Assembly: GCA_016219425.1 (NCBI GenBank)
Contig: JACRNB010000008.1
Coordinates: 39,248 to 103,247 of the forward strand
Source of the DNA: Betaproteobacteria bacterium
GTDB taxonomy: Bacteria; Pseudomonadota; Gammaproteobacteria; Burkholderiales; Thiobacillaceae
DNA length: 64,000 nucleotides
Direction of reading: 5' to 3'
Of this stretch, positions 786-52,218 are shown piece by piece. Position 1 is the stretch's first letter. Each line of letters opens with the position of its first letter. The notes under the pieces were generated by a model. The model was given only the letters and a program-made list of their open reading frames with translations. It had not been told where the DNA came from and did not search any database. The translations under genes and the position numbers were made by a program.

Positions 786-1010
786 TTTCCCCCCTTGATA
801 AAGGGGGGCAGGGGGGATTTCTGAGCCGGTCCGCCTGGCTGCCGTCGTCAAATCCCCCTCCTTCCCCCTTTTGCAAAGGGGGAGGCCACTCGTGCAAGCG
901 CCAGCGTAAGTTCCAGGCCGGCGATCCCCCAGCGGTTCCCCCCTTTGGAAAAGGGGGGCAGGGGGGATTTCCGCGACATACGCACAGGCCACCGCCGCCA
1001 AATCCCCCCC
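786..1010. repeat. REP-like composite repeat, family A (CCCCCTTT-N3-AAAGGGGG hairpins), reverse orientation relative to copies at 12.5 and 28.5 kb
   Basis: Three hairpins (ccccccttgataaagggggg, cccccttttgcaaaggggg, cccccctttggaaaagggggg). The spacers are the reverse complement of the 135-bp unit seen at 28517-28950. Confidence 0.8.
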
Positions 1011-1054: not shown

Positions 1055-2587
1055 TTGACCGTGCTGCCGCGCCTGCTGCTCCTGTTCGCCCTCCTCCTGC
1101 CTTTCCTCGGCCTGGGCGGCTTTCCCCTGTTTGACCTGGATGAAGGCGCATTCACCGCCTCCACCACCGAGATGTTCCTGCGCCAGGACTTCCTCTCCAC
1201 CTGGCTGCACGGCGCGCCGCGCACCGACAAGCCGGTGCTGTCCTACTGGCTCCAGGCCGGTTCCGCCCGCCTGTTCGGGTTTGACGAGTTCGGTTTCCGC
1301 CTGCCCTCGGCCCTCGCCGCCAGCGCCTGGATCGGGCTCACCTACCTGTTCACCGCGCGCGTCGCCAGCCGCGAGGCCGCCACCCTGGCGGCGGTGATCC
1401 TGGCTACCGCGCTGGGGCCGCTCATCATCACCAAGGCCGCCACCGCCGACGCCCTGCTCAACCTGTTCCTCGCCGCCGCCGGCTACGCCGCCTGGCTCTG
1501 GCTCGATACCGGTGCGGCGCGCTGGCGTGCGCTGGCGTGGGGGGCGATGGGCCTGGGCTTTCTCACCAAAGGGCCGGTGGCGGTGCTGATCCCTGCCGCC
1601 GCCGTATTCCTGTACTGCGCCAGCGGACGCGACTGGACGCGACTGCGCGGCTTCTTCCTCGCGCCGCGCGCCTGGGCGCTGTTCCTGCTCATCGCCCTGC
1701 CCTGGTTCGTCATCCTCTACCAGCAGCAGGGGCCGGCCTTCCTGCTGGGCTTCTTCCTCAAGCACAACCTGGGACGCTTTTCCGCGCCCATGGAAGGCCA
1801 CGGCGGCTCGCCCCTGTATTACCTGCCGGTGCTGCTGCTCTCGTTGCTGCCCTTCACCGGCCTGTTGTTCAGCCTGGGCGCGCGCGCCCGCACCGCCTGG
1901 GCCACGCCCTGGCTGCGCTTCGGGCTGATCTGGTTCGGCTTCGTGTTCCTGCTGTTCTCCGCCTCCGGCACCAAGCTGCCGCACTATTTGTATTACGGCT
2001 ACGCCGGGCTGATCCCCGCCCTGGCCTGGGCCTGCGGACAGGCGCGCATGCGCGCCGTGGCCCTGGGCGCGCTGCCGCTGTTCCTGCTGCTCCTGTTCCT
2101 GCCCGACCTGCTGCTGGCCCAGGCCGGGGCGGTGGGGATGCACTATCGCGCCGCCCTGGCCGAGACGGCGCAGCACTTCGGTCCCGGCTACCGCGCCTTC
2201 TTCGCCTTCGCCGCCCTGGCGGCGCTGGCCAGCCTGCTGACGGGACGCTTCTCCGTATCCGCCCGCACCGCCGCGCTGGGCCTCCTGGGCGGGCTGGGCG
2301 TCGCCCTGCTGCTGCTGCCCGCCGTGGGTAACTTGCTGCAAGGCCCCACCAAGGCCGCCGGGCTGGCGGCGCGCGCCCTGCCCGGCCCGCTGGTGATGGA
2401 CGGCCTCAACCACCCCAGCTTCCAGACCTACGCCGGCAGGCTGGTGGAGCGCCGCGAACTGCGCCCCGGCGACCTGGTGCTGCTGCCCGCCGGCGGTCTC
2501 GACAAGATGCCGCCGCATGACGTCGTCGGCCTGTACCGCGACCTGGCCCTGGCACGGGTGAAGATGAGGATGAGGGAAACCCCATGA
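1055..2587 (+). CDS. Glycosyltransferase family 39 (ArnT/PMT-like) membrane protein
   Basis: TTG start. Polytopic membrane protein with N-terminal DLDEGAF..TDKPVLSYWLQA..FGFRLPSAL, typical of ArnT-like GT39 enzymes. Its stop overlaps the next start (ATGA at 2584). Confidence 0.75.
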   Translation: MTVLPRLLLLFALLLPFLGLGGFPLFDLDEGAFTASTTEMFLRQDFLSTWLHGAPRTDKPVLSYWLQAGSARLFGFDEFGFRLPSALAASAWIGLTYLFTARVASREAATLAAVILATALGPLIITKAATADALLNLFLAAAGYAAWLWLDTGAARWRALAWGAMGLGFLTKGPVAVLIPAAAVFLYCASGRDWTRLRGFFLAPRAWALFLLIALPWFVILYQQQGPAFLLGFFLKHNLGRFSAPMEGHGGSPLYYLPVLLLSLLPFTGLLFSLGARARTAWATPWLRFGLIWFGFVFLLFSASGTKLPHYLYYGYAGLIPALAWACGQARMRAVALGALPLFLLLLFLPDLLLAQAGAVGMHYRAALAETAQHFGPGYRAFFAFAALAALASLLTGRFSVSARTAALGLLGGLGVALLLLPAVGNLLQGPTKAAGLAARALPGPLVMDGLNHPSFQTYAGRLVERRELRPGDLVLLPAGGLDKMPPHDVVGLYRDLALARVKMRMRETP

Positions 2588-5001
2588 CCCCCCTGCTGGA
2601 CGCGCCGCGCCCCCTTTCCCCCGCCCTGGTCTGGGGCCTGCCGCTGGCGATGCTGGCGGGCATGGCCCTGGTGCTGGTGCAGGGCGGCAACGCGCACTGG
2701 TTCCTGGTCTTCAATCAGCCGCGCCTGCCGGATGGCGTCTGGGCCGCGTTCACCACCCTGGGGGACAGCCTCACCGCCTTCTGCATCCTCCTGGCCCTGG
2801 CGCGTCGCCGCCCGGACATGGTGGCGGCGGGCCTGATCGCCGCCGTGTTCGCCACCCTGCTGACCCAGTTGCCCAAACATGTGCTCGATGTGGCGCGTCC
2901 GGTCATGGCGCTGGGGGATGCGGTGCATGTGATCGGGCCGACGCTGAGGCACGGCTCCTTTCCCTCCGGCCACACCACCACGGCCTTTGTCATGCTGGCC
3001 CTGGCGGCAGCCTTCCTGCGCAATCGCGCCGGCCTGCTGTGGCTGTTCCCCCTGGCGGCGCTGGCGGGGGTCTCGCGCATCGCCGTGGGCGCGCACTGGC
3101 CCCTGGATGTGCTGGCGGGGGCGGCGCTGGGCTGGGTGTGCGGCATGACCGGGGTGTGGATCGCCCACGGCATCGGCCTGCGCCGTCTGAACGCCTGGGC
3201 GCAGGGCTTCCTGCTGCTGGCCGCCGTGTACTACCTGACCGGCTACGACAGCCGCCAGCCCCTCACCGACGGTCTGGAGAAGGGCATCGCCCTGGCCGCC
3301 CTGCTGACCTATCTGTGGACGTATTGGCTGCCGCCGGGCCGCTTCCGGCTGCGCCTGGGGACGCCTTCCTTCCCTTGCGCCGCCCTCCCAAGAAACTCGC
3401 CGGGCCGCCCCAAGAGTTTCTTGCCCCTTGAGGGGAGAACCGAGCGAAGCGAAGGTTTTCGGGGTGGGCTCATCCTGCTCAGCGTTTGCGCCACCCTGGC
3501 GCTCTGGCGTCTGTGGGCGCGCCAGCATGCGGGCGTGGAGCTGTTCTTCGACGAGGCCTATTACTGGGGTTGGTCGCGCCATCTCGACTGGGGCTATTAC
3601 TCCAAGCCGCCCATGGTGGCGTGGGTGATCCGCCTGGGCACGGAGCTGTTCGGCCCCAGCGAAACCGGCATTCGCGCCGGCGCGGCGCTGCTCTACCCCC
3701 TCACCGCCGGGCTCATCTTCCTGTTCACGCGCCGACTGTTTGCGCACGAGCCCGAGGCCGACGCCATCGCCCTGGCGGCGGGTCTGGCCTTCATCACCCT
3801 GCCGGTGGTGAGCTTCGGCAGCTGGTTCATGACCACGGACGCGCCGCTGATGTTCTTCGGCGCCCTCGCGATCTGGGCCTACCTGCGCGCCGCCGAGACC
3901 AACCGCTGGCGCGACTGGCTGCTGCTGGGCGCAGCCCTGGGCCTGGGCGCACTGAGCAAATACACCATGGTGTTTTTCGCCTTGGGCATCGGCCTGCACT
4001 CCCTGTTCCAGGCGGATCGCAGGCGTCGGCTCGCAAGTCGTTCGCCGAGCCGCTCCAAGAACGAGTTGGCCCCCGCGGGGGGCGGCTCGGACGGTTTTTC
4101 CGAGCCGGGGGCGCAACTGACCAATCCTCGCCTGTGGGCGGCGGGGCTGCTGGCCCTGGCCCTCCTCGCCCCCAACCTGATCTGGAACGCCCAGCACCAG
4201 TTCGCCAGCTTCAAGCACACGGCGGAGATCTCCCATCTGGACCGGGCGGGGCTGCGTCCGGCGGAACTGGCCTCCTTTGTCGCCGCCCAGTTCGGCCTGA
4301 TGGGGCCGGTGCTGATGACCGGCCTGGCGCTGCTCCTGCTGCGCCGCGCCACCTGGCGCGATGAACGGCTGGTGTTGCTGGCCTGTTTCAGCCTGCCCGC
4401 CCTGCTCGCGTTCTGCGGTCTGGCCCTGACCAGCCGCGCCTTCGCCAACTGGGCGGCCTTCGCCTATGTCGCCGCCACGCCGCTGGTGGCGGCGGCTTGG
4501 TGGCGATCAGGACGGCGCGGCTGGCTCACGCTCGCCCTGGCGACCAATCTGGCCCTGGGCGCCGGGCTGTACCACTGGCACGACATCGCCCGCGCCCTGG
4601 ACCAGACCCTGGTGCGCAAGACCGACCCCTACCATCGCGTACATGGCTGGAGCGCCCTGGGCCGAGAGGTGGCGGAGGAGCTGGCGGCCCATCCCGACGC
4701 CCGGCTGGCGGGCGAGGCGCGGGATCTGCTGGCCCAGGCGTCCTTCTACGGCGGCCCGCGCGCAGCGGACCCGCTGATCCATAACCCCGAAGACCGCATC
4801 CGCAACCACTTTGACCTGACGGCGAGCCTGCGCAGCCAGCCGCACGGGGAGTTCCTCTTCATCACCTACAGCGAAACCGTGCCGCTGAAGCTGTTCCGCG
4901 AAGGCGAACGGGTACGCATCGTGAGCACCCCGCTGCTGCCGGACCTGACCCGCGTGATCTATCTCTGGCGGGTGCGCGACTACGTCTGGACCGCGCCGTG
5001 A
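2584..5001 (+). CDS. Fusion ORF: N-terminal PAP2 phosphatase domain + C-terminal GT39 (ArnT-like) glycosyltransferase domain
   Basis: PAP2 motifs (PSGHTTTAF, SRIAVGAHWPLDVLAG) lie in aa ~100-200. The GT39 signature (FFDEAYYWGWSRHLDWGYYSKPPMVAW) begins about aa 310. No stop or canonical start lies between them. The junction is a REP-like element at 3386-3468. Confidence 0.7.
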   Translation: MTPLLDAPRPLSPALVWGLPLAMLAGMALVLVQGGNAHWFLVFNQPRLPDGVWAAFTTLGDSLTAFCILLALARRRPDMVAAGLIAAVFATLLTQLPKHVLDVARPVMALGDAVHVIGPTLRHGSFPSGHTTTAFVMLALAAAFLRNRAGLLWLFPLAALAGVSRIAVGAHWPLDVLAGAALGWVCGMTGVWIAHGIGLRRLNAWAQGFLLLAAVYYLTGYDSRQPLTDGLEKGIALAALLTYLWTYWLPPGRFRLRLGTPSFPCAALPRNSPGRPKSFLPLEGRTERSEGFRGGLILLSVCATLALWRLWARQHAGVELFFDEAYYWGWSRHLDWGYYSKPPMVAWVIRLGTELFGPSETGIRAGAALLYPLTAGLIFLFTRRLFAHEPEADAIALAAGLAFITLPVVSFGSWFMTTDAPLMFFGALAIWAYLRAAETNRWRDWLLLGAALGLGALSKYTMVFFALGIGLHSLFQADRRRRLASRSPSRSKNELAPAGGGSDGFSEPGAQLTNPRLWAAGLLALALLAPNLIWNAQHQFASFKHTAEISHLDRAGLRPAELASFVAAQFGLMGPVLMTGLALLLLRRATWRDERLVLLACFSLPALLAFCGLALTSRAFANWAAFAYVAATPLVAAAWWRSGRRGWLTLALATNLALGAGLYHWHDIARALDQTLVRKTDPYHRVHGWSALGREVAEELAAHPDARLAGEARDLLAQASFYGGPRAADPLIHNPEDRIRNHFDLTASLRSQPHGEFLFITYSETVPLKLFREGERVRIVSTPLLPDLTRVIYLWRVRDYVWTAP
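3386..3468. repeat. REP-like element, family B (diverged copy), in frame at the PAP2/GT39 junction
   Basis: Hairpin caagaaactc-gccgggccgccccaa-gagtttcttg has the same loop as the family B copies at 4028 and 22652. Confidence 0.6.
4028..4116. repeat. REP-like element, family B, in frame inside the GT39 domain
   Basis: Near-identical to intergenic 22652-22738 (caag..gttcgcc(g/c)(g/a)gccgc(c/t)ccaagaacga(c/g)ttg..c(a/g)cggggggcggctcgg(g/a)cggtttt(t)cccgagccgggggcgc). Confidence 0.75.
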
Positions 5002-5651
5002 AGTGCCTTGCCTTCTGGGCCTTTCCGCCCCTGGCGCTGCTGTTTCTGTTGTTTCCGGAGATCGATCTGGCGGTGGCCGCCCGGTTCTGGTCGCCGGAGG
5101 GCGGGTTCAGCGGCTCCGGTTCCCCGCTCCTGGCCTTCGTGCGCAAGCCCTTGCTGGACTGGGCGGTCGGGCTGGCGCTTCTGGCCAGCGTCGGCGGCTG
5201 GGCCTGGAGTCATCTGTGCGGCGCCCCGGTCCCCCTGGTGCGTCATCGCCGCCGTCTGGCCTTCCTTGCCCTGGTCCTTCTCATCGGCCCGGGGCTGGTG
5301 GTGAACACCCTGTTCAAGGACCAGTGGGGCCGCGCCCGCCCGCATCAGGTGCAGGAGTTCGGCGGCGCACGCGATTTCACCCCCGCCTGGGTGATGAGCG
5401 ACCAATGCCAACGCAACTGTTCCTTCGTCTGCGGCGACGCCTCCGTAGGCTTTGCCCTGCTCGCCTTCGGCTATTTCGGTCGCCATCGCCGCGCCTGGAT
5501 CGGAGCCGGCCTCGCCGCCGGTTCCCTGCTGGGCCTGATGCGCATCGCCCAGGGCGGCCACTTCCTCAGCGACGTGGTGTTTTCCGGCTACGCGGTGGCC
5601 CTTGTCATCGGGCTCCTGGCGCGCTGGCTCAAACCGGATCAACCCGGATAA
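4998..5651 (+). CDS. PAP2 family phosphatase (membrane)
   Basis: GTG start overlaps the upstream stop (GTGA). Motifs KDQWGRARP, SFVCGDAS and RIAQGGHFLSDVV are the three PAP2 signature blocks. Confidence 0.8.
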   Translation: MKCLAFWAFPPLALLFLLFPEIDLAVAARFWSPEGGFSGSGSPLLAFVRKPLLDWAVGLALLASVGGWAWSHLCGAPVPLVRHRRRLAFLALVLLIGPGLVVNTLFKDQWGRARPHQVQEFGGARDFTPAWVMSDQCQRNCSFVCGDASVGFALLAFGYFGRHRRAWIGAGLAAGSLLGLMRIAQGGHFLSDVVFSGYAVALVIGLLARWLKPDQPG

Positions 5652-9072: not shown

Positions 9073-10971
9073 GTGTCGTCCCTGATCCGCCTCCTCGCCC
9101 TGCTGGAACCCCGCCACTGGGTCGCCCTGAGCGCCAGCCTTGCGCTGCACTGGGCGGTCTGGTGGGGCTTCCCCGCCGGCGGCCCGCCCGCGCCCAAACC
9201 CATCACCTTCGAGGTCGCCCTGCAACCGCCCGAGGCGGAACCGCCGCCGCGCACACGCGTGAAATCCAGGCTGACCGACCGGAGCCGGGCCAAGCCCAAG
9301 CCGATCCAGCGCAAACCGCGTCAGGCCGAGACCCTCCAGGCGGAATGGAAGGCGGAGTCGATCCAGCCCAAGGCCGCGCCGGCGGTGGACCTGCCCAAGG
9401 CCGAAGCCGTCCTCAGCCCGCCCGACGCCCCGACCCACCCGGTTTCCGGGGTGCTCGCGGCCAACGCGCGCCAACCCGCCGCCGGCGCGAAAACCCCGGC
9501 CCCGAGCGGCGCTACGGGTGAGGGCGAGGCCGGTTTGTCGGAACCCGGCAGCGCCGGCCTCGCCGCAGGCGGCGCGCCCGGCAGCTTCGCCAGTCTGTCC
9601 AATGCCGGCGCTGCGCCCCAGGCGCAGAACACCGCACCCGGGGCGGGCGCGCAGGGGGCCGAAGCGCGCAGTGCGCTGGCTGCCGCAGCCTCTGCCTCCG
9701 CCCAGCCTGGCGCGGGCTCCTTCTCCGCCAGCGCCGGCGCCGGCGCAGGTCAGAACGTGGCTGCCGGGAACGGGGCGCAAAGCGTCAGCCGCAGCGACTC
9801 CCCGCCCCTGGCCGGGGGCGAACCGCAGGGCGCGCGCCTGAGCGTTGCCGGCGCGCTCGCCGCCCAGGCCGCCCTGCCGGCGGGCCGCGGCAGTCTTGCC
9901 GCCGCACCGCCCGCGGTCGAGGCCGGTCGCGCCCAGCCCGCCCCCGGCGCGGCCCAAGGCAACGCGCTGGCGAGTGCGCAGGCCGGCGGCGCTTCCGCCA
10001 GCCCGCTGAGTGCAGGCCCCCGGCGCGCCGGCAGCGGCGGGCGCGGCGCCAGCGCATCCGCCGCGCTCGCCGCCAAGGGCGGCGAGGCCGTGCCGCACCT
10101 GACCGGAACGGCCCCACGCAACCAATCCCTGGTCAGCGGAACCGGTCTGCCCGCCCTGCGCGCGGGGGTCATGGCGGCGCCGGTCGGGGTCGTGGCCCTG
10201 CGGCCTGGAGAGCCGGGCAGTTCGCCGCGCTTCGCCGTCGCCCTGCAACCCGTGCGCGCGGGGCTCGCGCCGGAAGGCGGCAAGGCCGGCGTGCGCGGAA
10301 CTCAGGCTGGCGAGGGGCAGGGCTTGCAGGCGAGGGCGCCTGCGCTACCCGGCGGGGCCGATGGCGACGGGGTTTCGCCCACGCACCTCGCCCGCGCGCC
10401 CGGCGGCGCAAGCGGTACGGGCGTCACCAACGCGGTCTCCAGCCTGCGCGCCGAGCGCGGCCAGCCCGGCCTTGCCGCCCCGTCCGGCCAGAGTCTGGCG
10501 AGCGGACGCGCGCACAGCCCCGGCGACGTCAACGGCACGCTGCAAGGCGTCAAGGTCGCCGCCGGCAAGGTCATGCGCCCGGACAGCCAGTTGCAGAAAC
10601 TGGATGTGCTCGCCCCGTCCAGCTTCTGCCCGCTGCCCATGCACCCGCAGCCGGACAACCGCGCGCCGAAATCCCTGCTGGAACAGTTCGAGAAGCCCGC
10701 TTACCGGGCCGAAAACCCCGGCTTCCAGTACCCGGTGCTGGCCAATATCCAGGGGATCTCGGGCAAACTCATCGTGCGCGTGCAGGTGATGGAAGATGGA
10801 ACGCCCGGCCAGATCCTGCTCAAACAGAGCAGCGGCAGCGGACTTCTGGACCGCGACGCACGCGAACAGATCGCACGCTGGCAGTTCACGCCGGCGCGCA
10901 AGAACGGCCAGGTGGTCCCCTCCTGGGTGGATATCCCGGTGGAATACCGCCTGCCCGAGGACCGAAAATGA
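9073..10971 (+). CDS. tonB: TonB-family energy transducer with very long Ala/Gly/Pro/Ser-rich linker (632 aa)
   Basis: N-terminal TM segment with an SxxxH motif (SLALH), a Pro/Lys-rich segment, and a C-terminal TonB_C-like domain (YPVLANIQGISGKLIVRVQV..ARWQFTPARKNG). GTG start. Confidence 0.75.
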   Translation: MSSLIRLLALLEPRHWVALSASLALHWAVWWGFPAGGPPAPKPITFEVALQPPEAEPPPRTRVKSRLTDRSRAKPKPIQRKPRQAETLQAEWKAESIQPKAAPAVDLPKAEAVLSPPDAPTHPVSGVLAANARQPAAGAKTPAPSGATGEGEAGLSEPGSAGLAAGGAPGSFASLSNAGAAPQAQNTAPGAGAQGAEARSALAAAASASAQPGAGSFSASAGAGAGQNVAAGNGAQSVSRSDSPPLAGGEPQGARLSVAGALAAQAALPAGRGSLAAAPPAVEAGRAQPAPGAAQGNALASAQAGGASASPLSAGPRRAGSGGRGASASAALAAKGGEAVPHLTGTAPRNQSLVSGTGLPALRAGVMAAPVGVVALRPGEPGSSPRFAVALQPVRAGLAPEGGKAGVRGTQAGEGQGLQARAPALPGGADGDGVSPTHLARAPGGASGTGVTNAVSSLRAERGQPGLAAPSGQSLASGRAHSPGDVNGTLQGVKVAAGKVMRPDSQLQKLDVLAPSSFCPLPMHPQPDNRAPKSLLEQFEKPAYRAENPGFQYPVLANIQGISGKLIVRVQVMEDGTPGQILLKQSSGSGLLDRDAREQIARWQFTPARKNGQVVPSWVDIPVEYRLPEDRK

Positions 10972-11000
10972 ATTTCAGACTACCCACGAAAGGAGCCGCC

Positions 11001-12476
11001 ATGAAACTGCGCGCCCTGTCTCTCGCCCTCGCCCTGCTCGCCCCCCTGCCGGCAGCCGCCCAGTTACCCATCCCCGACCCGACCCAGGCCATGCAACTGG
11101 CGCTGCGCTACTACCAGATGGCGGCCCAGGCCGGCGACCCGGAGGCGCAAGCCAAGATGGGCTGGCTGTTCGAAAACGGCATGGGGGTGGCGAAAGACCT
11201 CACCAAGGCGGTGGACTGGTACACCCGCGCCGCCATGCAGAAAGACCCCATCGGCCTCTACAACCTGGGCCTGATGTTCCTCAAGGGCCAGGGCGTGAAC
11301 CCGGACGTGAATCAGGCCGCGCAACTCTTCACCGGCGCCGCCGAACTCAACATGGCCGCCGCGCAGTCGCAGCTCGCCCTGCTGTACGAACAGGGCGTCG
11401 GCGTCCCCAAGAACCCGGCCCTCGCCGCCCAGTGGCTGCGCCGCGCCGCCGATCTGGGCGACATCCCGGCGCAGAACAACCTGGGCATCAAGTACGCCCA
11501 GGGCCTGGGCGTGGCGGTGGACTTCAAGGAGGCGGTGAAGTGGTTCACCCGCGCGGCGGAAGGCGGCAACGCCGAGGCGCAGGGCAACCTCGCACTGATC
11601 CTGAAGGAGGGCATGGGCGGCACGCCGAAAGACCTGGCCGCCGCCGCCAACTGGTTCGCCCTGGCCGGCAATCAGGGTCATGTGGCATCCATGAGCCGCC
11701 TGGGCTGGATGTTCGAGAAGGGGGAGGGCATCCCGAAGAACCTGAGCGAGGCGGTGCGCTGGTTCACCCTGGCCGCCAACGCGGGCGATGCGCCCACCGC
11801 CGCGCATCTGGGCTGGCTGCTGGAGACCGGCGCGGCAGGCCAGGCCGATGCCGCCGCCGCCCGCGCCTGGTATGAGAAGGCCGCCACGGCGGGCGACGCC
11901 GCCGCCCAGAACAACCTGGGGCGTCTGCTGCGCGAGGCGCAGGACTATGCCAAGGCGCGCGAGTGGTTCCACAAGGCCGCCGCGCAAAGCGAACCCCTGG
12001 CCTGGTACAACCTGGGCCTGATGGCCGAACAGGGCCAGGGCGTCGAAAAGAACGGGGCGGCGGCGCTGGACCTGTTCCGCAAGGCGGCGGACAAGGGCCT
12101 GCCCGCCGCGCAGAGCCGTCTGGGCTGGCTGCTGCACAAGGACGGCAAGGCGGAAGAGGCGGTGACCTGGCTCACCAAGGCCGCCGAGGCGGGCGACCTG
12201 CCGGCGCAGAACAACCTGGGCGTGATCTTCGAGCAGGGCCGGGGCGTGGCCAAAGACCTGGCCGCCGCCGCCAAGTGGTATCGCAAAGCCGCCGAAGCGG
12301 GCGACCGCGTGGCCCAGAACAACCTGGGCGTGATGCTGCGGGACGGCCTGGGACTGGCGAAGAACGAGGCCGAGGCCACCGCCTGGTTCCAGAAATCCGC
12401 CGACCAGGGCTACGCCAAGGCCCAGCTCAACCTGGGGCAGATGTTCGAACGGCAAGCGGGCGGCAAGAAACCCTGA
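11001..12476 (+). CDS. Sel1-repeat (SLR/TPR-like) secreted protein
   Basis: Signal peptide MKLRALSLALALLAPLPAAAQ, then more than 10 repeats of the A..WY.KAA.QG...AQ..LG..Y..G.GV..D type. RBS aaaggag precedes the ATG at 11001. An alternative ATG at 10968 overlaps the tonB stop (ATGA). Confidence 0.85.
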   Translation: MKLRALSLALALLAPLPAAAQLPIPDPTQAMQLALRYYQMAAQAGDPEAQAKMGWLFENGMGVAKDLTKAVDWYTRAAMQKDPIGLYNLGLMFLKGQGVNPDVNQAAQLFTGAAELNMAAAQSQLALLYEQGVGVPKNPALAAQWLRRAADLGDIPAQNNLGIKYAQGLGVAVDFKEAVKWFTRAAEGGNAEAQGNLALILKEGMGGTPKDLAAAANWFALAGNQGHVASMSRLGWMFEKGEGIPKNLSEAVRWFTLAANAGDAPTAAHLGWLLETGAAGQADAAAARAWYEKAATAGDAAAQNNLGRLLREAQDYAKAREWFHKAAAQSEPLAWYNLGLMAEQGQGVEKNGAAALDLFRKAADKGLPAAQSRLGWLLHKDGKAEEAVTWLTKAAEAGDLPAQNNLGVIFEQGRGVAKDLAAAAKWYRKAAEAGDRVAQNNLGVMLRDGLGLAKNEAEATAWFQKSADQGYAKAQLNLGQMFERQAGGKKP

Positions 12477-12492
12477 GACCGTAAACGCCGCC

Positions 12493-12713
12493 GCCTTCCC
12501 CTTTGGGAAAGGGAGGGGAAACCGTTGGGGCTGCGTAGACGCCTCCATGAGCGCCTTCCCCCTTTCCCAAAGGGGGAGTGAGGGGGATTTAGCGACGGTG
12601 GCTAAGCGACCCGGCTCAGAAATCCCCCCTACCCCCCTTTGGGAAAGGGGGGGAAACCGGTGGGTCCGCGCAGACGTCTCCACGCGCGCCTTCCCCCTTT
12701 CCCAAAGGGGGGA
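12493..12713. repeat. REP-like composite repeat, family A (~1.6 units), intergenic
   Basis: Same 135-bp unit as 28517-28950, in the same orientation. Confidence 0.8.
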
Positions 12714-22390: not shown

Positions 22391-22651
22391 TCTTGAATCC
22401 TCCAAACGGGTTGAAAAAACCGGTCCTGCCACCCGGCAGGGTCGGGTGATGGTAAGCCAAATCGGTTGCAACGCCATAGCGCACGGGAAAAATCTTGCCA
22501 CCGGGGTCGACCCAGCCAACTCGCCCAAACTGAGCCGGGCGCAGCCCCATTCTTCCTGATACGGGACGAGCCTGACTTGAGCCTCGTCACACCTGCGAAG
22601 GCCGACATCCAGTGAACAGCCGCTGACGCCTCATGTCGGGTTACGGCTTCG

Positions 22652-22738
22652 CCTCTCAAGTTGTTCGCCGGGCCGCCCCAAGAACGACTTGACCCCCACG
22701 GGGGGCGGCTCGGGCGGTTTTCCCGAGCCGGGGGCGCT
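22652..22738. repeat. REP-like element, family B, intergenic (preceded by a family E fragment at 22628-22650)
   Basis: See 4028-4116. Same hairpins. Confidence 0.75.
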
Positions 22739-22981
22739 GCTAACCCTGCTGGGGTTGCAACCGGTGGCCGAACAGTTCCATTCCGCCCTCGTCGAGTTGC
22801 GCGAGTCGGAACCCGACTGTGGCATCGGCGAAACCGCATTCCGCTACTGGCGAGCAGCCTTGGGCGGGAGCTGAATCTCGCCACCAGTCCGGCACGGGTT
22901 CCCCATCAATACCTTCGATTCGCCATCACAGTATTGTTCCTGTAATTCGGTGAATATTGATATGTACCGATATTAAGGAAC

Positions 22982-23593
22982 ATGCTGACTCATATGAACA
23001 CCACCGCCGAGAGGCTGATCGATCTGGTGCGATCCAGTGGGCTTGTCCGCCCATGTGATCTGGCGCCACTGGGAATCCCCCGCGTTTCCCTGACCCGCGC
23101 CGTCCGGCATGGGCAGTTGGAGCGTGTCGGGCGCGGCCTCTACGGACTGCCTGGGCGAGAGGTATCGGCCCACGGATCGCTGGCGGAGGTGGCGCGCAGG
23201 GTGCCCAAAGGGGTGGTTTGCCTGCTCTCTGCGCTGCGATTTCACGACCTGACGACCCAAGCCCCGTTTCAGGTGTGGCTGGCCATCGAGAACAAAGCCA
23301 TTGCACCGAAGCTCGACTACCCGCCCCTGCGCATCGTCCGTTTCTCCGGCGCGGCGTTCACCGAGGGCGTCGAGGAACATAGCGTGGACGGGGTGACCGT
23401 TCGCGTGACCGGCGTCGCCAAGACCGTCGCCGACTGTTTCAAGTACCGCAACAAGATCGGCCTCGATGTCACCCTGGAGGCACTGCGCGAGGCCTGGCAC
23501 GAGAAGCGCATGACCAGTGACGACATCTGGCGTTACGCCAAGGTCTGCCGCGTGGCCAACGTAATGCGTCCCTACCTGGAGAGCCTGGTATGA
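22982..23593 (+). CDS. abiEi: AbiEi-family type IV TA antitoxin (transcriptional regulator)
   Basis: N-terminal wHTH (LVRPCDL..GIPRVSLTRAVRHGQLERVGRGLY) and C-terminal AbiEi_4-like region. Its stop overlaps the start of the AbiEii remnant (ATGA). Confidence 0.85.
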   Translation: MLTHMNTTAERLIDLVRSSGLVRPCDLAPLGIPRVSLTRAVRHGQLERVGRGLYGLPGREVSAHGSLAEVARRVPKGVVCLLSALRFHDLTTQAPFQVWLAIENKAIAPKLDYPPLRIVRFSGAAFTEGVEEHSVDGVTVRVTGVAKTVADCFKYRNKIGLDVTLEALREAWHEKRMTSDDIWRYAKVCRVANVMRPYLESLV

Positions 23594-24716: not shown

Positions 24717-25754
24717 TCAACCCAGCCAACCCGCCGCCCCCAGTTCCGGCGCGATGCCCTCCAGCGCCGCCAGCCCGCGGCGAGCCCGCATCGCCCAGCC
24801 CTTGCCGCGCGAGGACAGATCCGCCCAGGCCGCCTCGATCTCCCAGGGGCGGCGTTCGCGGTAATACGCCAGCAGGGCGGCGGCTTGCAGCAAGTCCTTC
24901 TGGCCCTTGTGCAGAAAGGCGCCAGCGCGCTCGCCGTAGACCAGCAATTTGTGCACGGCATAGCGTGCGGGGTCGGGGAGACTCACCGTCACCGCGCCCT
25001 CCGGGCAGAACAGCGCCGCCTGGATCGGGGATTGCAGCCCGAATTCCATGAATTTCAGGGGTTGCAACGGGATACCCAGGCGCGGGTGGATATACGGTTC
25101 GTCGCCGCCGCGTTTGAGCGTGGTGAGAAAGTCCAGCCTGAACTCGGGCTGGCGCGGGTTGAGGAAGGTCGCCCCGCGCTTGCCGGAAAGCTGCGTCACC
25201 GGGAGCAGGCCCATCTGGAGCGATTCAATGGCCTTGGGCACGTCGATCTCGATGCTGGACGGCAGCGCAATCGACAGATTCTTGCCCGCATGTGCGAAAT
25301 CCACATCCTGGGTGCGCGAGGCGTCGCCCCAATGCACACCAAGCAGGTTGCCGTAGGCCAGAAAGGCATGCGTGCCGACCAGCAGCCCGCCGGCGCGGAA
25401 GAAACCGAAATCGGCCAGTTGCCGAATCACCCGGTAATGTCGGGGCAGCAGCCCCGCGCACCCCAGAGCCAGGGCGGAGCGCGCCAGGGGGATCAGGGGG
25501 CTCGCGCGTGCTGTTTGGGTCTGTCCGACCAGCGCCTGCACCTCCGGGGTGTCCGGCCCCACATAGAGTTGCCGGTGCACGCCATCCAACCCGGCGAACT
25601 GGAAGTACCAGTATTTCCGCCCCTTCACGGTCTTGCTGGAAAACGCGCCGCGCAAGTCCGCCACGCCACGCGCAAGGTCTGCGGCCAGGGCGACCTCGAA
25701 CAACTCGGCGTAGGCGGTCTGGGCAGTGAGGGTAAGTTCGGTGTGGCGGGGCAT
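24717..25754 (-). CDS. Nucleotidyltransferase-fold protein (resembles the GSU2403-type family); function unknown
   Basis: 345-aa ORF. The central region (GTHAFLAYGNLLGV..SRTQDVDFA) resembles a minimal NTase fold. Assignment is from memory of the family, not a search. Confidence 0.5.
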   Translation of the reverse strand: MPRHTELTLTAQTAYAELFEVALAADLARGVADLRGAFSSKTVKGRKYWYFQFAGLDGVHRQLYVGPDTPEVQALVGQTQTARASPLIPLARSALALGCAGLLPRHYRVIRQLADFGFFRAGGLLVGTHAFLAYGNLLGVHWGDASRTQDVDFAHAGKNLSIALPSSIEIDVPKAIESLQMGLLPVTQLSGKRGATFLNPRQPEFRLDFLTTLKRGGDEPYIHPRLGIPLQPLKFMEFGLQSPIQAALFCPEGAVTVSLPDPARYAVHKLLVYGERAGAFLHKGQKDLLQAAALLAYYRERRPWEIEAAWADLSSRGKGWAMRARRGLAALEGIAPELGAAGWLG

Positions 25755-25887: not shown

Positions 25888-26178
25888 CTACACCGGCGAA
25901 TGGGTCTTGACCCACTCCCGCATCGCCTCATTCACGCGCGTCTGCCAGCCCTTGCCGGAGGCCTTGAGCGCCGCCAGCACATCGGCGTCGAAGCGGATGG
26001 TGGTCGGCACCTTGAGCGGGCGCGTGGAAGGCGGACGCCCGAAACGGACCAAGGGTTTGACCGCCTCCCATTCCTCATCGGTCAGCGGCATCGCATCCGG
26101 GTCGGACATCGCCGCCGCCGTGATGATGGCGTCTTCTTCCGGGGTGGGGATGATCGTTCCAGGTTTAAGTCTTGGCAT
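25888..26178 (-). CDS. brnA: BrnA-family antitoxin
   Basis: MPLTDEEWE.. ..IRFDADVLAALKASGKGWQTRVNEAMREWV is a typical BrnA C-terminus. Overlaps brnT by 14 nt. Confidence 0.85.
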   Translation of the reverse strand: MPRLKPGTIIPTPEEDAIITAAAMSDPDAMPLTDEEWEAVKPLVRFGRPPSTRPLKVPTTIRFDADVLAALKASGKGWQTRVNEAMREWVKTHSPV

Positions 26179-26431
26179 AGTGGTTCACCTCTCTCGGGTT
26201 GGCCTTGCGCAAACTGATGACGCGCCGCCCATCGGCGCGATCCACGAAGGCCACGAAAAACAACCGCAGCCCGATGTACCCGATTCCGCACTGGCGCGCC
26301 TCGCCATACGCGCGCCGGGCATCCGGCCACATCAGCGCCGTCTCCCACTCCAACCGCGCCGCCAACCCCAGCGACACGCCATGCTTGGCGAGGTTGGCGG
26401 CATCCTTGGCGGGATCAGACGTGATGTTCAT
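26165..26431 (-). CDS. brnT: BrnT-family toxin (DUF497)
   Basis: DPAKDAANLAKHGVSL..GEARQCGIGYIG.RLFFVAFVDRADGRRVISLRKANPREV. Start taken at MNITSDP. Confidence 0.85.
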   Translation of the reverse strand: MNITSDPAKDAANLAKHGVSLGLAARLEWETALMWPDARRAYGEARQCGIGYIGLRLFFVAFVDRADGRRVISLRKANPREVNHYAKT

Positions 26432-26511
26432 GTCACTTATTGTATTAACAATAACAAAGCCCGGCAATCGGGATTTCGGCCTTCACGGCCCGCACCGGCG
26501 GGGGTCGCCTG

Positions 26512-29500
26512 ATGGACAATCCAACGCGCGCCGCCCCCCCTGAACCCATGATCCTAGGAACCCCTCTCCACGAAGCCCTCGCCCCTGCCCGCAGCGCGGT
26601 GGTGGAGGCCTGCGCCGGCAGCGGCAAGACCTGGCTGCTGGTGTCGCGCATGATCCGGCTGCTGCTGGCGGGGGCGGAGCCTTCGCAGTTGCTCGCCATC
26701 ACCTTCACGCGCAAGGCGGCGGGGGAGATGCGGGCGCGGCTGGATGCCTGGCTCACCGATCTGGCCTGCCTGCCCGACGCCGACGCGCTCGAATTCCTGA
26801 CCCAGCGCGGCCTGACCGGGGTCGAGGCGCAAGCCGCGCTGCCGCGCGCGCGCGGGCTGCTGGAGCAGGTGCTGAACGCGCGTCCCGGCCCGCTCATCAC
26901 CACCTTTCACGGCTGGTTTTTCCACTTGCTGTCCCACGCCCCGCTGGCCCTGCGCCGTGCGGAAGAAGTGGTGGAACACCCGGCCCTGATGCAGCAAGAG
27001 GCGTGGTCCGACTTCATGCGCCAACTCGGGCGCGAGCGCGGCAACGCAGCCGAAAGCGCCTTCGCCCAACTGGCGGCGGAAATGCCCCTCGCCACCCTGC
27101 GCGACCTGCTCGATACCCTGCTGGAACGGCGCGCGGAATGGGCGGCGTATGCAGAAAACAGCGAGGATGCGCTGGAGCAGGCCTGCGACGCGCTGGCGAC
27201 CCGGCTGGGCGTCACACCCGAGGAAACGCCCGCCGCAGACCTGCTGGCCGATCCGGCGTTCCGCGACGCGCTGGATGAATACCGGGCGCTGCTCACACGG
27301 GAAGCAACCGGCCTGAAGACCGAGGCCAAGCGCCTGAATTCGCTGGAATCGTTCCTCGCCGCCGCAACGCCCGCATCCGCGCTGGAAGGGCTGCAATCCT
27401 GCCTGCTGACGACAGACGGCCACCCGCGCACGCTGAAGCTGACCGGAACCATGCAGGGCCGCCTGCCCAACGGCGAGGCGGAACGCTATCTCGAACTCCA
27501 CTACGCCCTGGCCGAGCGCGTACAGCGCACCCTCCACCATCTCGCCGAACAGCGCGCCCTGCGCCTCAACCGTCTGGGCCTCACCTGCGGCCTCGCCTGG
27601 CTGGACGCCTACGCCGCGCAGAAAGAGGCGCAGGGCGTACTGGACTTCACCGACGCCGAAGTGGAAACCGCGCGCCTGCTCACTCAGGAAGGCGCGGCGG
27701 AGGCGGTGCTGATGAAGCTGGACGCGCGCTGGAAACACCTGCTGCTGGACGAATTTCAAGACGCCAACCCGATGCAGTGGCGCATCCTGCGCGCCTGGCT
27801 GGACGCCTACGGCGCCGACGCCGAGCGCCCCACGGTGTTCCTGGTAGGCGACCCCAAGCAATCCATCTACCGCTTCCGCCGCGCCGAACCGCGCCTGTTC
27901 ACCGCCGCCGCGCACTGGCTGGAACAACGTTTCGACGCACAGCACTTTCCCCAGAACGAAACGCGCCGTTGCGCCCCGCGCGTGGTCGCCTGGGTCAACG
28001 CCGTCTTCGCCGGGCGTGACGACTACCCCGGCTTCGCCCCCCATGACGCGCACCAGACCGCGCTACCCGGCTGGTGCGAGATCCAATCCGTTGCAGCCGC
28101 TGAGGGGGTGCAGACCGAGCCCATCACCTTCCGCCGCCCGCTGGAACAGGCCGCGCCCAACCCGCCGCACAAACGCGCAGAAGAGGCCGCCTGGGTGGCC
28201 CAGCGCATCGGCGAGATCGTCGGCAGCCTGGAGATCCAAACCACCCCGCCGCGCCCCGCGCGCTATGGCGACCTCCTCGTGCTCTACACCAAGCGCGCCG
28301 ACCTGGAGGTGTTCGAGCAGGCGTTCAAACAGGCCGGCATCCCCTTCCGCACCAACCGCCGCGGCGCGCTGCTCGACACCCTGGAGGCGCGCGACCTCAC
28401 CGCCCTGCTCACCAGCCTCGCCCCCCCGCACGACGACCTGCCCCTGGCCCACGCCCTGCGCTCGCCGGTGTTCGGATTCAGCAATGCGGATTTGCAGACG
28501 CTGGCCGGCAGCACAAGCGCCTTCCCCCTTTGGGAAAGGGGGGAAAACCGTTGGGTCCACGCAGACGCCTCCACGAGCGCCTTCCCCCTTTTCCAAAGGG
28601 GGAGTGAGGGGGATTTGGCGACGGCGGCTCAGGCCAACGCCCCAGAAATCCCCCCTGCCCCCCTTTGGGAAAGGGGGGAAAACCGTTGGGTCCGCGCAGA
28701 CACCTCCACGCGCGCCTTCCCCCTTTCCCAAAGGGGGAGAGAGGGGGATTTAGCGACGGCGGCTCAGGCCAATGCCCCAGAAATCCCCCCTGCCCCCCTT
28801 TGGGAAAGGGGGGAAAACCGTTGGGTTTGCGCAGACGTCTCCACGAGCGCCTTCCCCCTTTCCCAAAGGGGGAGTGAGGGGGATTTGGCGACGGCGGCTC
28901 AGGCCAATGCCCCAGAAATCACCCCTGCCCCCCTTTTGCAAAGGGGGGAACCGCCTGCCTGGCGCGCGCGTCTCGCCGCCTGGGCCGCCCGGCCTGACGC
29001 CCCGGCGCATGTGGTGCGCGCCGCGCGGCTGCTGGCGGGCTGGCGCGATCTGGCCGGGCGCATCCCGGTGCATGACCTGCTCGACCGCATCTATCACGAG
29101 GGCGAGGTCATGGAGCGCTACGCCGCCGCATTGCCGCCTGCCCTGGCCGACGCCGCGCTCGCCAACCTGGAAGAACTCCCCGGCCTCGCCCTCAAGCTCT
29201 CCGGCGGGCGCTACCCCAGCCTGCCGCGCTTTCTCGACGAAGTGCGCCGCCTGCGCGACCAGGCCGCCGGCGAAGGTCCGGACGAACCGCCGCCCGCCCA
29301 GGCCGACGCCGTGCGCATGCTCACCATCCACGGCGCGAAAGGGCTGGAAGCGCCGGTGGTGTTCCTGATCAAGGCCGACGCCGCCGAGGGCAAGCCGGAC
29401 CACACCGGCGTCCTGATCGACTGGCCGCCCGAGGCCGACCGTCCGCAGCACTACTCGCTCCACGGCGCGGCGGAATGGCGCGGGCCGGGGCGCGACGACC

Positions 29501-30234
29501 TGTTCGCGGCGGAACAGGGGCAGGCCGAACGCGAGCGCCTCAACCTGCTCTACGTCGCCATGACGCGCGCGCGGCAGGCGCTGTTCGTCACCGGCGTGGC
29601 GGGTGAAGGCAAGCGCGCGGAGGCCTCCTGGCTGACGCTATTGAGCACGGCAAAGGCGCGCGCGGAGATGGAAGGATTGCCGGAGATGGCGTGGCGACCG
29701 CAGGGCGCCTTGCCGACGCCGCCCTCTTCCCAGCCCTCCCCCGCCGAGGGAGGACGCGAACCCATCGGCTCCCGCCGCCCGTCCGAGACCTGGCAGGACA
29801 CCCCCCAGAGCGCCCACGGCACGCTGCTCCACGCCTGGCTGGAGCGCGCCACCGAGGGCTGGAGCGAGGCCGACCTGCGCGCCCGCCTGACCACGGACGA
29901 GACGGTGATCGCCCAAGCCCGCACCGTGCTCGCCACCCCCGAACTCGCCCCCGCCTTCGACCCGGCGCGGCATGTCCGCGCCCGCAACGAGCTGGAATGC
30001 CTGGATGCGCAAGGCCGCCTGCTGCGCATGGACCGCGTGGTGGAATTCAGCGATGAGATCTGGGTGCTGGACTACAAATCCGGCGGTCTGGACGAACCCG
30101 ACCTCACCCGCCGCGCCGCACCCTATCTGGAACAGATGGCCGCCTATCGCGCAGCCCTCGCCCCCCTCTACGCCCCCAAGCCAGTGCGCTGCGCGCTGGC
30201 GTTCGCAGACGGCCAACTGTGTTGGACAAACTAG
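26512..30234 (+). CDS. UvrD/AddA-type ATP-dependent helicase with C-terminal PD-(D/E)XK nuclease domain (1240 aa), carrying an in-frame REP tandem array
   Basis: Walker A AGSGKTWLLV. LLLDEFQDANP (motif II). FLVGDPKQSIYRFR. TIHGAKGLEAPVVFL. YVAMTRAR. Nuclease motif MDRVVEFSDEIWVLDYKSG. Confidence 0.85.
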   Translation: MDNPTRAAPPEPMILGTPLHEALAPARSAVVEACAGSGKTWLLVSRMIRLLLAGAEPSQLLAITFTRKAAGEMRARLDAWLTDLACLPDADALEFLTQRGLTGVEAQAALPRARGLLEQVLNARPGPLITTFHGWFFHLLSHAPLALRRAEEVVEHPALMQQEAWSDFMRQLGRERGNAAESAFAQLAAEMPLATLRDLLDTLLERRAEWAAYAENSEDALEQACDALATRLGVTPEETPAADLLADPAFRDALDEYRALLTREATGLKTEAKRLNSLESFLAAATPASALEGLQSCLLTTDGHPRTLKLTGTMQGRLPNGEAERYLELHYALAERVQRTLHHLAEQRALRLNRLGLTCGLAWLDAYAAQKEAQGVLDFTDAEVETARLLTQEGAAEAVLMKLDARWKHLLLDEFQDANPMQWRILRAWLDAYGADAERPTVFLVGDPKQSIYRFRRAEPRLFTAAAHWLEQRFDAQHFPQNETRRCAPRVVAWVNAVFAGRDDYPGFAPHDAHQTALPGWCEIQSVAAAEGVQTEPITFRRPLEQAAPNPPHKRAEEAAWVAQRIGEIVGSLEIQTTPPRPARYGDLLVLYTKRADLEVFEQAFKQAGIPFRTNRRGALLDTLEARDLTALLTSLAPPHDDLPLAHALRSPVFGFSNADLQTLAGSTSAFPLWERGENRWVHADASTSAFPLFQRGSEGDLATAAQANAPEIPPAPLWERGENRWVRADTSTRAFPLSQRGREGDLATAAQANAPEIPPAPLWERGENRWVCADVSTSAFPLSQRGSEGDLATAAQANAPEITPAPLLQRGEPPAWRARLAAWAARPDAPAHVVRAARLLAGWRDLAGRIPVHDLLDRIYHEGEVMERYAAALPPALADAALANLEELPGLALKLSGGRYPSLPRFLDEVRRLRDQAAGEGPDEPPPAQADAVRMLTIHGAKGLEAPVVFLIKADAAEGKPDHTGVLIDWPPEADRPQHYSLHGAAEWRGPGRDDLFAAEQGQAERERLNLLYVAMTRARQALFVTGVAGEGKRAEASWLTLLSTAKARAEMEGLPEMAWRPQGALPTPPSSQPSPAEGGREPIGSRRPSETWQDTPQSAHGTLLHAWLERATEGWSEADLRARLTTDETVIAQARTVLATPELAPAFDPARHVRARNELECLDAQGRLLRMDRVVEFSDEIWVLDYKSGGLDEPDLTRRAAPYLEQMAAYRAALAPLYAPKPVRCALAFADGQLCWTN
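28517..28950. repeat. Tandem array (~3.2 copies) of the 135-bp family A REP-like unit, in frame within the helicase-nuclease ORF
   Basis: Equivalent unit positions at 28581, 28716 and 28851 give a period of 135 bp (45 codons). Each unit holds two CCCCCTTT-N3-AAAGGGGG hairpins. Confidence 0.9.
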
Positions 30235-44905: not shown

Positions 44906-45087
44906 CATCTCCCTGCTGCGTTCGCGAGGGTTGCAAATTCTTTGAACCGATACGCGTAAGCGCAGGTCCGGCAACAAGGCCGCTGGTGTGATCGTGGCTC
45001 GTCCCACGAACCCGAGGCGACTGAGCCGGGCCGACCTTGAACCCCTGGGTTCAAGATAGCTTCCCGGACGGCGTGAGCGGGGAGACC
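44906..45087 (+). ncRNA. ssrS: 6S RNA
   Basis: Conserved zapA-ssrS-ygfA synteny. 5' tctccctgctgcgttcgcgaggg pairs with 3' cccggacggcgtgagcggggaga. The ccttgaacccctgggttcaag hairpin is equivalent to E. coli CCUUGAACCAAGGGUUCAAGG. Length ~182 nt; ends are approximate. Confidence 0.8.
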
Positions 45088-51558: not shown

Positions 51559-52218
51559 ATGAAGAAACTGTCCGCCCTGATCCTGGCCCTGGTTGCCCAA
51601 TCCGCCTTCGCCGCCGCCCCCACTCCCGACGCCACCGCCGCCCAGTTGCTGGATCCCGCCAAGGTTGCCGATCTGGCCAAAGACCCCAAGGCTGCCGTTG
51701 CCGCCATGACCAACCTGATGGATCCCGCCACCGCCATCGCCCTGGCCCAGAAGTCCATGGACCCCGCCACCTTCACCAAGATGATGCAGGCTGGCATGTC
51801 TCCTGACATCCTGAAGGCCTATGCCGCTTTCCTGGACCCCGCTGTTTCCATGAAGTGGCTGGCTGCCGGTATGGACCCCAACTTCTACATGGCCGCCATC
51901 AACCCCATGCTGAACCCCAACATGTACACCAAGTGGATGATGGCTCCGGTTGACCCGCGCGTCCTGCAAATGGCCATGGCTCCCCTGAACCCCAACCTGT
52001 ACATGCAGTGGGCCACCGCTCCTCTGGCTCCCGCCAACATGAACATGATGATGGCTCCCCTGAACCCCAACCTGTACACCCAGTGGGCCGGCGCTGCTGC
52101 CGATCCCAAGACCTACGGCACCTGGGGCGCCTTCATGAACCCCGCCACCTACGGCAACATGGCCAACCCCTTCGCTGGCCTGTTCCCGGTTGCTGCTCCC
52201 GCTCCCGCTGCCAAGTAA
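51559..52218 (+). CDS. Secreted Met/Pro/Ala-rich repeat protein ((M/L)(D/N)PxxYxxW(M/A) repeats)
   Basis: RBS aggag. Signal peptide MKKLSALILALVAQSAFA. About ten ~12-13-aa repeats, for example LNPNLYMQWATAP, LNPNLYTQWAGAA and MDPNFYMAAINP. I count 22 Met in the mature part. Confidence 0.65.
   Translation: MKKLSALILALVAQSAFAAAPTPDATAAQLLDPAKVADLAKDPKAAVAAMTNLMDPATAIALAQKSMDPATFTKMMQAGMSPDILKAYAAFLDPAVSMKWLAAGMDPNFYMAAINPMLNPNMYTKWMMAPVDPRVLQMAMAPLNPNLYMQWATAPLAPANMNMMMAPLNPNLYTQWAGAAADPKTYGTWGAFMNPATYGNMANPFAGLFPVAAPAPAAK

Follow-up and report, generated by a model that had tools for sequence, protein, structure and literature searches.

How does an apparently noncoding palindromic repeat come to be translated through the middle of a DNA-repair gene, and what becomes of the enzyme? 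The question is raised by a 64,000-nucleotide stretch (hereafter, the window) of contig JACRNB010000008.1, which belongs to a metagenome-assembled genome (MAG) of a betaproteobacterium of the Thiobacillaceae (GCA_016219425.1). Here, a tandem array of a 135-bp palindromic unit lies inside a gene for an AddA/RecB-type helicase-nuclease (26512-30234, forward strand, 1240 aa). Our answer is that the array is most probably a tolerated passenger, similar to repetitive extragenic palindromic (REP) sequences and bacterial interspersed mosaic elements (BIMEs), which expanded in place within a permissive surface loop of the 2B domain, the AddA-type gene itself remaining intact.

Tandem Repeats Finder, applied to the window, delimited the array at 28524-28950, with a period of 135, 3.2 copies, 94% matches, 0% indels and a score of 763. 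The recurring motif is a short hairpin, CCCCCTTT-N3-AAAGGGGG, for which 13 matches at no more than one mismatch were found in the 64-kb window, compared with 0 expected from 100 dinucleotide-preserving shuffles. Of these hairpins, seven are located in the array (28524, 28584, 28659, 28719, 28794, 28854 and 28929), with a spacing that alternates between 60 and 75 nt, and the other 6 lie at 789-957 and 12558-12711. Each 135-bp unit is composed of a 94-nt nested palindrome (the core) and a 41-nt linker. Within the core, a first CCCCCTTT-N3-AAAGGGGG hairpin with the loop CCC is followed by 5 nt, GGGGGATTT, a 29-nt loop, AAATCCCCC, 4 nt and a second hairpin, which is the reverse complement of the first and has the loop GGG. 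Besides these two short hairpins, GGGGGATTT-N29-AAATCCCCC represents a third inverted repeat of the core and, since its two 33-nt arms are inverted repeats, the entire core folds as one long hairpin. Furthermore, a 146-nt stretch that contains the first core (28575-28720), folded as single-stranded DNA, reached -42.9 kcal/mol (z = -4.4), and none of the shuffled sequences was equally stable.

The array begins with a hairpin (CCCCCTTT-GGG-AAAGGGGG, 28524-28542), preceded by GCGCCTT, which resembles the tail of a linker. This is followed on the forward strand by linker copy 1 (GAAAACCGTTGGGTCC.CGCAGACGCCTCCACGAGCGCCTT, 41 nt, 28543-28583), core 1 (94 nt, 28584-28677), linker copy 2 (41 nt, 28678-28718), core 2 (94 nt, 28719-28812), linker copy 3 (41 nt, 28813-28853), core 3 (94 nt, 28854-28947) and the first few bases of a fourth linker (GGAACCGCC, to about 28957). 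In core 1, the hairpins occupy 28584-28602 and 28659-28677, with GGGGGATTT at 28608-28616, AAATCCCCC at 28646-28654 and the 29-nt loop in between. Cores 1 and 2 match the regular expression of the element family, and core 3 carries one stem mismatch (AAATCACCC). Along the array, the mutually reverse-complementary GGG-loop and CCC-loop hairpins alternate, separated by linkers of 41 nt and 56 nt. In total, repeat-derived DNA within addA extends over about 28511-28957. Scanned for promoters and terminators, the array yielded no site resembling either. An earlier reading made from the letters alone (the sequence-only reading) had given the coordinates, period, copy number and encoded peptide of the array correctly, as established by Tandem Repeats Finder and by translation of the open reading frame (ORF).

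The ORF at 26512-30234 crosses the array without a stop, and its frame is the only stop-free one among the six frames of the array. Three Pfam domains were identified in the 1240-aa product: UvrD-helicase (PF00580, 1.6e-41), UvrD_C (PF13361, 9.8e-20) and PDDEXK_1 (PF12705, 1.7e-5). The latter, a nuclease domain, covers residues 1099-1229 with 25.3 bits (cut-off 22), and D1174 as well as D1187-Y-K1189 within it are invariant in an alignment of 17 sequences. The top NCBIfam model, TIGR02784 (addA_alphas), scored 427.5 bits, which is below its equivalog cut-off of 860.75; therefore, the gene is best called AddA-like. In the PDB, the top phmmer match was 3u44_A, AddA of B. subtilis, and a Foldseek search with the AlphaFold model ranked the AddA structures 4cej_A, 4ceh_A and 3u44_A first (E 1e-20 to 1e-23), with RecB next. 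Orthologues carry the JGI label 'ATP-dependent helicase/nuclease subunit A'. Thus, the assignment to the UvrD/AddA type, which the sequence-only reading had already made, is borne out by the three domains and by AddA as the best match in both sequence and fold. An identical NCBI protein, MBI5330306.1, starts at Met13 (1228 aa) and is encoded as a single CDS on a 336-kb contig of a 'Betaproteobacteria bacterium' MAG.

Within this protein, the repeat-derived insert (28511-28957, forward strand) corresponds to residues ~667-815, a net gain of ~144 aa over orthologues. The inserted segment of ~145 residues, which includes the peptides GSEGDLATAAQANAPEIPPAPLWER, is bounded by ..SNADLQTLAG on its N-terminal side and ..AWRARLAAWA on its C-terminal side. 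The expectation that about 145 repeat-encoded residues are read in frame and that the ORF runs on into the nuclease domain therefore holds. When the window protein was aligned first with 16 orthologues and then with 119, no other sequence carried the insert, which is also the largest of the set; its absence from all 119 orthologues (at most 65% identical, about 1070-1250 aa) is one of the outcomes envisaged for the comparison that the sequence-only reading had proposed. The nearest relatives, which are approximately 65% identical, originate from Thiobacillus, Hydrogenophilales and Gallionellaceae MAGs, and the nearest of them comprise 1084-1089 aa compared to 1240 aa here. Relatives above 65% identity were found neither by a protein search nor by scanning metagenomes with the 189 aa that directly precede the insert.

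By hidden Markov model alignment, the insert is positioned between residues ~665 and ~699 of B. subtilis AddA and between residues 430 and 467 of PcrA, which we take, from the domain boundaries of superfamily 1A (SF1A) helicases, to be the beginning of the 2B domain. Residues 460-1240 were modelled with AlphaFold2 from a 74-sequence alignment, resulting in a mean predicted local distance difference test (pLDDT) score of 76. Residues 670-811 showed pLDDT values of 25-40 and no secondary structure, and the flanking helices (658-669 and 817-826) were predicted with values of about 90 or above. Because this low-confidence segment lies between two confident helices, the insert is predicted to be a disordered excursion from a non-catalytic subdomain; this agrees with the surface loop for which the sequence-only reading had proposed to look by structure prediction. 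On both sides of the insert, all columns that are invariant among the 17 sequences are kept. The motifs GSGKT, DEFQD, GDPKQSIYRFRRA, TIHGAKGLE and YVAMTRAR and the nuclease motif D...DYK are retained, conservation downstream of the insert equals that upstream, and neither a frameshift nor a stop was found.

The three in-frame copies differ from each other at 9 sites, with 6 non-synonymous versus 3 synonymous differences, and all but one of these sites lie outside the stems. What is conserved is the DNA palindrome, and the peptide is a by-product; at the level of sequence, there is no sign of selection on it. A search with the insert peptide against a set of 5.8 billion proteins returned 8 candidates, 0 of them significant, with composition filters having probably removed matches.

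Two further occurrences of the repeat in the window are intergenic. The first comprises 1.6 units in the same orientation as the array (12485-12713, forward strand), starting 9 nt past the stop of a Sel1-repeat gene that ends at 12476 and preceding hemA, which starts at 12782. In a repeat search, positions 12492-12711 were 85-88% identical to the array over 220 nt. The second is a cluster in reverse orientation (786-1010, reverse strand) in which three hairpins recur every 75 nt; its start lies 20 nt past the stop of ORF 5-766, and it is flanked on its other side by a PMT_2 glycosyltransferase gene (1055-2587). REPs are typically located just downstream of genes (PMC3733652), and since both intergenic copies lie near the 3' ends of the upstream genes, their placement is REP-like. 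The sequence-only reading had described the unit as an intergenic repeat elsewhere in the window and as stop-free in the AddA frame there too; both loci indeed fall between genes, and the intergenic copy is open in the AddA reading frame.

Taken together, we propose that noncoding, hairpin-forming DNA of the REP/BIME kind, or of the related kind in which REP doublets form hairpins (REPINs), became coding sequence by accident. In this lineage, one composite of the 94-nt palindrome and the 41-nt linker would have entered addA at the codons for a short loop that connects the first and second helix of the 2B domain, followed by amplification in place to 3.2 copies, possibly by replication slippage or unequal recombination. 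The units of the array are 93-94% identical to each other but 87-90% identical to the core and linker of the intergenic copy at 12485-12713, which fits in-place amplification after a single entry. With 135 nt equal to 45 codons and a frame that happens to be stop-free, the gene would have stayed intact. A period of 135 nt is seen in the intergenic copy too; the 45-codon period is therefore a property of the element and was not shaped inside the gene. The outcome would be a disordered loop of ~145 residues, rich in Pro, Gly, Ala, Glu and Arg, that projects from the regulatory, non-catalytic subdomain and leaves the motor and the nuclease unchanged. Among the three options that the sequence-only reading had offered, a tolerated surface linker is thus the best supported.

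Several points weigh against this interpretation. As no relatives above 65% identity were found, the pre-insertion allele and possible copy-number variation are not observable, and the AddA product is a predicted protein. The source is a MAG, and the number of units in a 430-bp array of 135-bp units is precisely the kind of figure that short-read assembly may misjudge; the copy number of 3.2 is to be read as assembled. Moreover, 9 difference sites are too few to exclude weak selection. Finally, SF1A helicases use their 2B domain for regulation, and a 145-residue loop in it need not be neutral. In RecB, for instance, the 2B domain contacts RecD (PMC5030088).

The concern about assembly can be extended to the array as a whole, with either a wrong copy number or a chimeric join through the repeat. 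Besides the MAG source, this would be in line with MBI5330306.1 representing one contig and the only member of its cluster, with no independent assembly of the source organism having been found and with arrays of the same element family breaking assemblies elsewhere, including one (locus L120) that has a run of N inside. However, the array region contains no N and no low-quality signature, and each of the three units has private substitutions. The flanks on either side share the AddA frame and align to orthologues up to the junctions, which is not expected of a chimeric join. Furthermore, single in-frame copies of the element were found in independently assembled AddA orthologues, among them P0017, which is present on 3 contigs from different samples. 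We therefore consider an artefact unlikely. Given the uninterrupted AddA frame and the alignment to orthologues at either junction, together with the private substitutions of the units, the presence of the repeat is more secure than its copy number.

In orthologue P0017, the helicase-nuclease linker, a different site from the one in the window protein, contains one 94-nt core of the same element family (locus L002, 8832-8925), translated as FPLSQRGTEGDF...PPLSQRGE. An additional in-frame member is located near residue 539 of orthologue P0087 (L146). Moreover, the very loop that holds the array in the window protein is occupied by a different palindrome, CCCTCTCCC-GGG-GGGAGAGGG, in the syntenic Gallionellaceae orthologues P0038, P0040 and P0047 (L121 ~4920-5020 for P0038, as well as L144 and L145). 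There, it is decaying to 19-29 aa, and its presence in the three proteins probably goes back to one event. Across the 119 orthologues, repeat-like inserts cluster after positions corresponding to window-protein residues ~283-287, ~532-539, ~573, ~667-670 and ~1074. Among the individual cases, P0097 carries 69 + 42 aa of ALSPGPSPRGGGG-type repeats past residue ~287, and P0070 carries 83 aa of PTSGGGVDPLP-type repeats past residue ~532. From these sequences, it looks as though AddA in this clade has been colonised repeatedly by apparent translated repeats.

In-frame placement of the element is not restricted to AddA. In orthologous substrate-binding proteins of ABC transporters from two MAGs, it lies in frame within the SBP_bac_5 domain (L019 1309-1404 and L115 1046-1141), at the same protein site and in different frames of the element. 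Overall, an open frame that continues for at least 100 codons in both directions spans only about 13 of the 130 elements, and most such frames look spurious; in 98 of the 130, the open frame on a side is shorter than 50 codons. The idea that the element is built to be ORF-friendly was rejected, as cores have 2.3 of 6 frames open, at most slightly more than the 1.9 in shuffles. A second, unrelated repeat family of ~100 nt was also observed in the window: its copies at 4022-4122 and 22645-22745 (intergenic) share 86% identity, and it occurs at 3384-3427 as well. It is in frame in ORF 2584-5001 (forward strand), which encodes an 805-aa protein with PAP2 and PMT_2 domains, and its sequence, GGGCCGCCCCAAGAACGACTTGACCCCCACGGGGGGCGGC..., resembles the Bordetella consensus of the Betaproteobacterial repeat element (BRE). 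Together with the array in addA, this amounts to two genes with translated repeats in 64 kb.

Beyond the window, one genome per species was scanned with a half-core pattern, which yielded at least 117 stretches. Isolates among the matches listed belong to Lysobacter, Luteimonas, Pseudoxanthomonas, Glaesserella, Formivibrio and Geomonas, with example loci in Glaesserella parasuis (L081 2330-2426), Lysobacter sp. Root916 (L035), Geomonas sp. Red32 (L086) and Formivibrio citricus (L040). The matches listed also include MAGs of Thiobacillus, Sulfuricella, Gallionella, Rhodocyclales, Thiotrichaceae, Geobacter, Pelobacter, Desulfobacterales and Syntrophobacteraceae, as well as single contigs labelled Acidobacteriota, Poribacteria and Chitinophaga. 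In 62 full copies matching the regular expression of the family, the 33-nt arms are nearly constant, in contrast to the loop of ~29 nt and the flanking DNA, which are unrelated from copy to copy. Nearly identical arms were found in isolates of Beta-, Gamma- and Deltaproteobacteria, at host loci ranging from 38 to 69% GC. At the left end of the element, which is 94-100 nt long, three pyrimidines are added, and at its right end three purines. With regard to tandem arrangements, the periods observed in the window arrays and at L120, L063, L078, L035 and L020 were 135, 135, 150, 129, 174, 294, 228, 229 and 79 nt; 7 of these 9 are multiples of 3 although most arrays lie outside long ORFs, in what is a small sample chosen post hoc, and core lengths show no triplet bias.

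Nothing among the usual hallmarks explains how this element moves or is maintained. No flanking direct repeat of 2-8 nt exceeded expectation at 5 boundary offsets, which speaks against a target-site duplication, and GTAG, CTAC, CGTC or GACG occurred within 8 nt of an element end in at most 3 of 60 elements. An all-against-all BLASTP comparison of 3316 ORFs from the 117 loci revealed no recurrent transposase neighbour, the largest cluster consisting of sensor kinases and response regulators. Likewise, no REP-associated tyrosine transposase (RAYT) was a recurrent neighbour at the 117 loci, an outcome that would be expected even with one RAYT per genome. Only 2 matches were obtained in 2.9 million viral contigs, and plasmids gave no blastn match, with the low-complexity filter possibly hiding some. 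For the array, Rfam returned no family at the gathering threshold and only generic hairpin matches when searched by E-value (best 34.5 bits against a threshold of 87 bits), and a literature search with sequence words of the element found nothing relevant.

A bolder interpretation would be that the ~100-nt palindrome is a single mobile or horizontally spreading family across proteobacterial classes, with its arms kept constant by a widely conserved protein, that AddA-type enzymes are preferred or especially permissive landing sites for it, and that the array described here is a length-variable disordered tether on the 2B domain. We regard this combination as distinctly doubtful. The narrower proposal of an adaptive variable-number tandem repeat, in which the 45-codon unit alters the length of a disordered tether on 2B and thereby tunes AddAB activity or partner contacts, appears to us very improbable. 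While the period of exactly 45 codons could be taken as a sign of such a role, it is equally present as a 135-nt period in the intergenic copy, and therefore not gene-shaped. Analogous ~90-bp BRE arrays of Bordetella vary in copy number among strains (PMC3110155), 2B is a regulatory or contact domain in SF1A enzymes (PMC5030088), and the 2B loop has been struck independently by two repeat families; however, the differences between the copies look neutral, and orthologues without the insert are the rule.

The surroundings of addA bear on whether the gene still works. No addB is adjacent to addA in the window, nor is one present beside the loci of three orthologues. As orthologues likewise lack an adjacent addB, its absence from the neighbourhood is the normal arrangement. 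An upstream addB was considered and rejected, as the immediate neighbour is a 201-aa ORF (25907-26512) without a Pfam match, with an AbiE-like pair beyond it. This pair, an AbiEi antitoxin-like gene (22982-23593, forward strand) and a gene for an NTP_transf_8 nucleotidyltransferase (24717-25754, reverse strand), represents an AbiE-like toxin-antitoxin or abortive-infection system and has no counterpart at the syntenic locus L001. On the downstream side, synteny with one of the three orthologous loci extends to argJ.

Cryptic inactivation, the option of the sequence-only reading under which the gene would be a young pseudogene or its product misfolded, with an open frame that has just not yet decayed, could draw on the large size of the 145-residue disordered insert and on the missing addB neighbour, but it is scarcely credible and finds no support in a gene that keeps all invariant residues and motifs, is as conserved downstream as upstream, shows no frameshift or stop, and has many orthologues in which similar but smaller inserts occupy several loops.

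The probable passenger in AddA may serve as a worked example of how extragenic palindromic repeats are silently absorbed into large, loop-rich proteins. For annotation, it implies that long low-complexity stretches in MAG proteins, such as those of the PLSQRGE, PPFxKGG and SPxGGGG types, are to be considered translated repeats and not domains. Judging from the structural model, the AddA loop at the start of 2B would tolerate at least 145 disordered residues, and the 119-orthologue alignment maps several further permissive loops in the AddA clade. The element itself is the more interesting loose end, with near-identical arms across classes and no usual hallmark of mobility.

Some additional features of the window were recorded. 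A full-length 6S RNA (SsrS) is encoded at 44907-45087 (forward strand, 69.7 bits) and is the sole Rfam match in the window. The Sel1-repeat gene upstream of the intergenic copy (10968-12476, forward strand) encodes 9 Sel1 repeats, and its 108-nt (36-codon) DNA periodicity is that of an ordinary coding repeat. Tandem Repeats Finder further reported a 75-nt tandem repeat at 51910-52086 (2.4 copies, 75% matches), which may be a coding repeat.

It remains to compare the array with known repeat systems. The BIMEs of E. coli consist of palindromic units in alternating orientation with alternating linkers and are reiterated in tandem, and REPINs are composed of two inverted REPs that form one hairpin. 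The element described here shares the general character of REPs and BIMEs in being a short, GC-rich palindrome that is dispersed and mainly extragenic near 3' ends (3 loci in 64 kb, two of them intergenic). The array has the alternating orientation of units, the alternating conserved linkers and the tandem reiteration that are characteristic of BIME-2-like arrangements. Similar to a REPIN, two inverted units make up one long hairpin of ~100 nt, which corresponds to the 94-nt core, and in common with both BIMEs and REPINs, there is no target-site duplication. This absence also sets the element apart from miniature inverted-repeat transposable elements, despite its terminal inverted repeats. In contrast to BIMEs and REPINs, which are essentially extragenic and lineage-specific, the array is translated, the arms of the element are near-constant across several proteobacterial classes, and no RAYT was seen among the 117 loci.

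Rickettsia palindromic elements (RPEs), which the sequence-only reading had put forward as the classic precedent, were reportedly described by Ogata et al. in 2000 as 100-150-bp palindromic repeats inserted in frame into functional genes at permissive surface sites. The likeness is one of behaviour only, namely an in-frame palindromic insert that adds a peptide; by their description, RPEs are set apart as a family confined to Rickettsia and usually present in single copy, as opposed to the tandem array found here. Since REP and BRE cases have been published that are nearer, RPEs are not the closest precedent.

Among these, the ~90-bp GC-rich BRE forms tandem arrays of up to 8 copies, with a copy number that varies between strains, and some copies lie wholly within coding sequences (Hot et al. 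2011, PMC3110155). Our element resembles it as a GC-rich betaproteobacterial tandem repeat of similar size that is partly intragenic. Identity with the Bordetella BRE was nevertheless rejected, as CCCCCTTT, AAAGGGGG, GGGGGATTT and AAATCCCCC are all absent from BRE list S1 and the BRE sequences are unrelated.

Di Nocera, De Gregorio and Rocco (2013, BMC Genomics 14:522, PMC3733652) catalogued REPs located wholly inside ORFs and noted that many of the hosts are genes of DNA synthesis and repair, including recBCD, uvrD/rep, uvrA/B and DNA polymerases. Their REPs are likewise GC-rich palindromes, organised in dimers or clusters, that are mostly extragenic downstream of genes and sometimes in frame. 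In addition, different REPs occupy about the same recB site in two Xanthomonas species (PMC3733652), which parallels the two families in one AddA loop here. They differ in their GTAG or CGTC tag and their link to RAYTs, whereas our element has neither tag, and in that their largest intragenic clusters encode 43-82 aa (PMC3733652), compared with ~145 aa encoded here by regularly repeated 135-nt units. Given the intragenic REPs in recB and uvrD/rep (PMC3733652) and the tandem intragenic BRE (PMC3110155), the rarity that the sequence-only reading had ascribed to a tandem expansion in a recombination helicase was overstated. The array in addA is an unusually large example of an already described phenomenon and, as a larger case, extends the published link between intragenic REPs and genes of recombination and repair; new are how large the insert is and how widely the element is spread over proteobacterial classes without a known mobilising enzyme.

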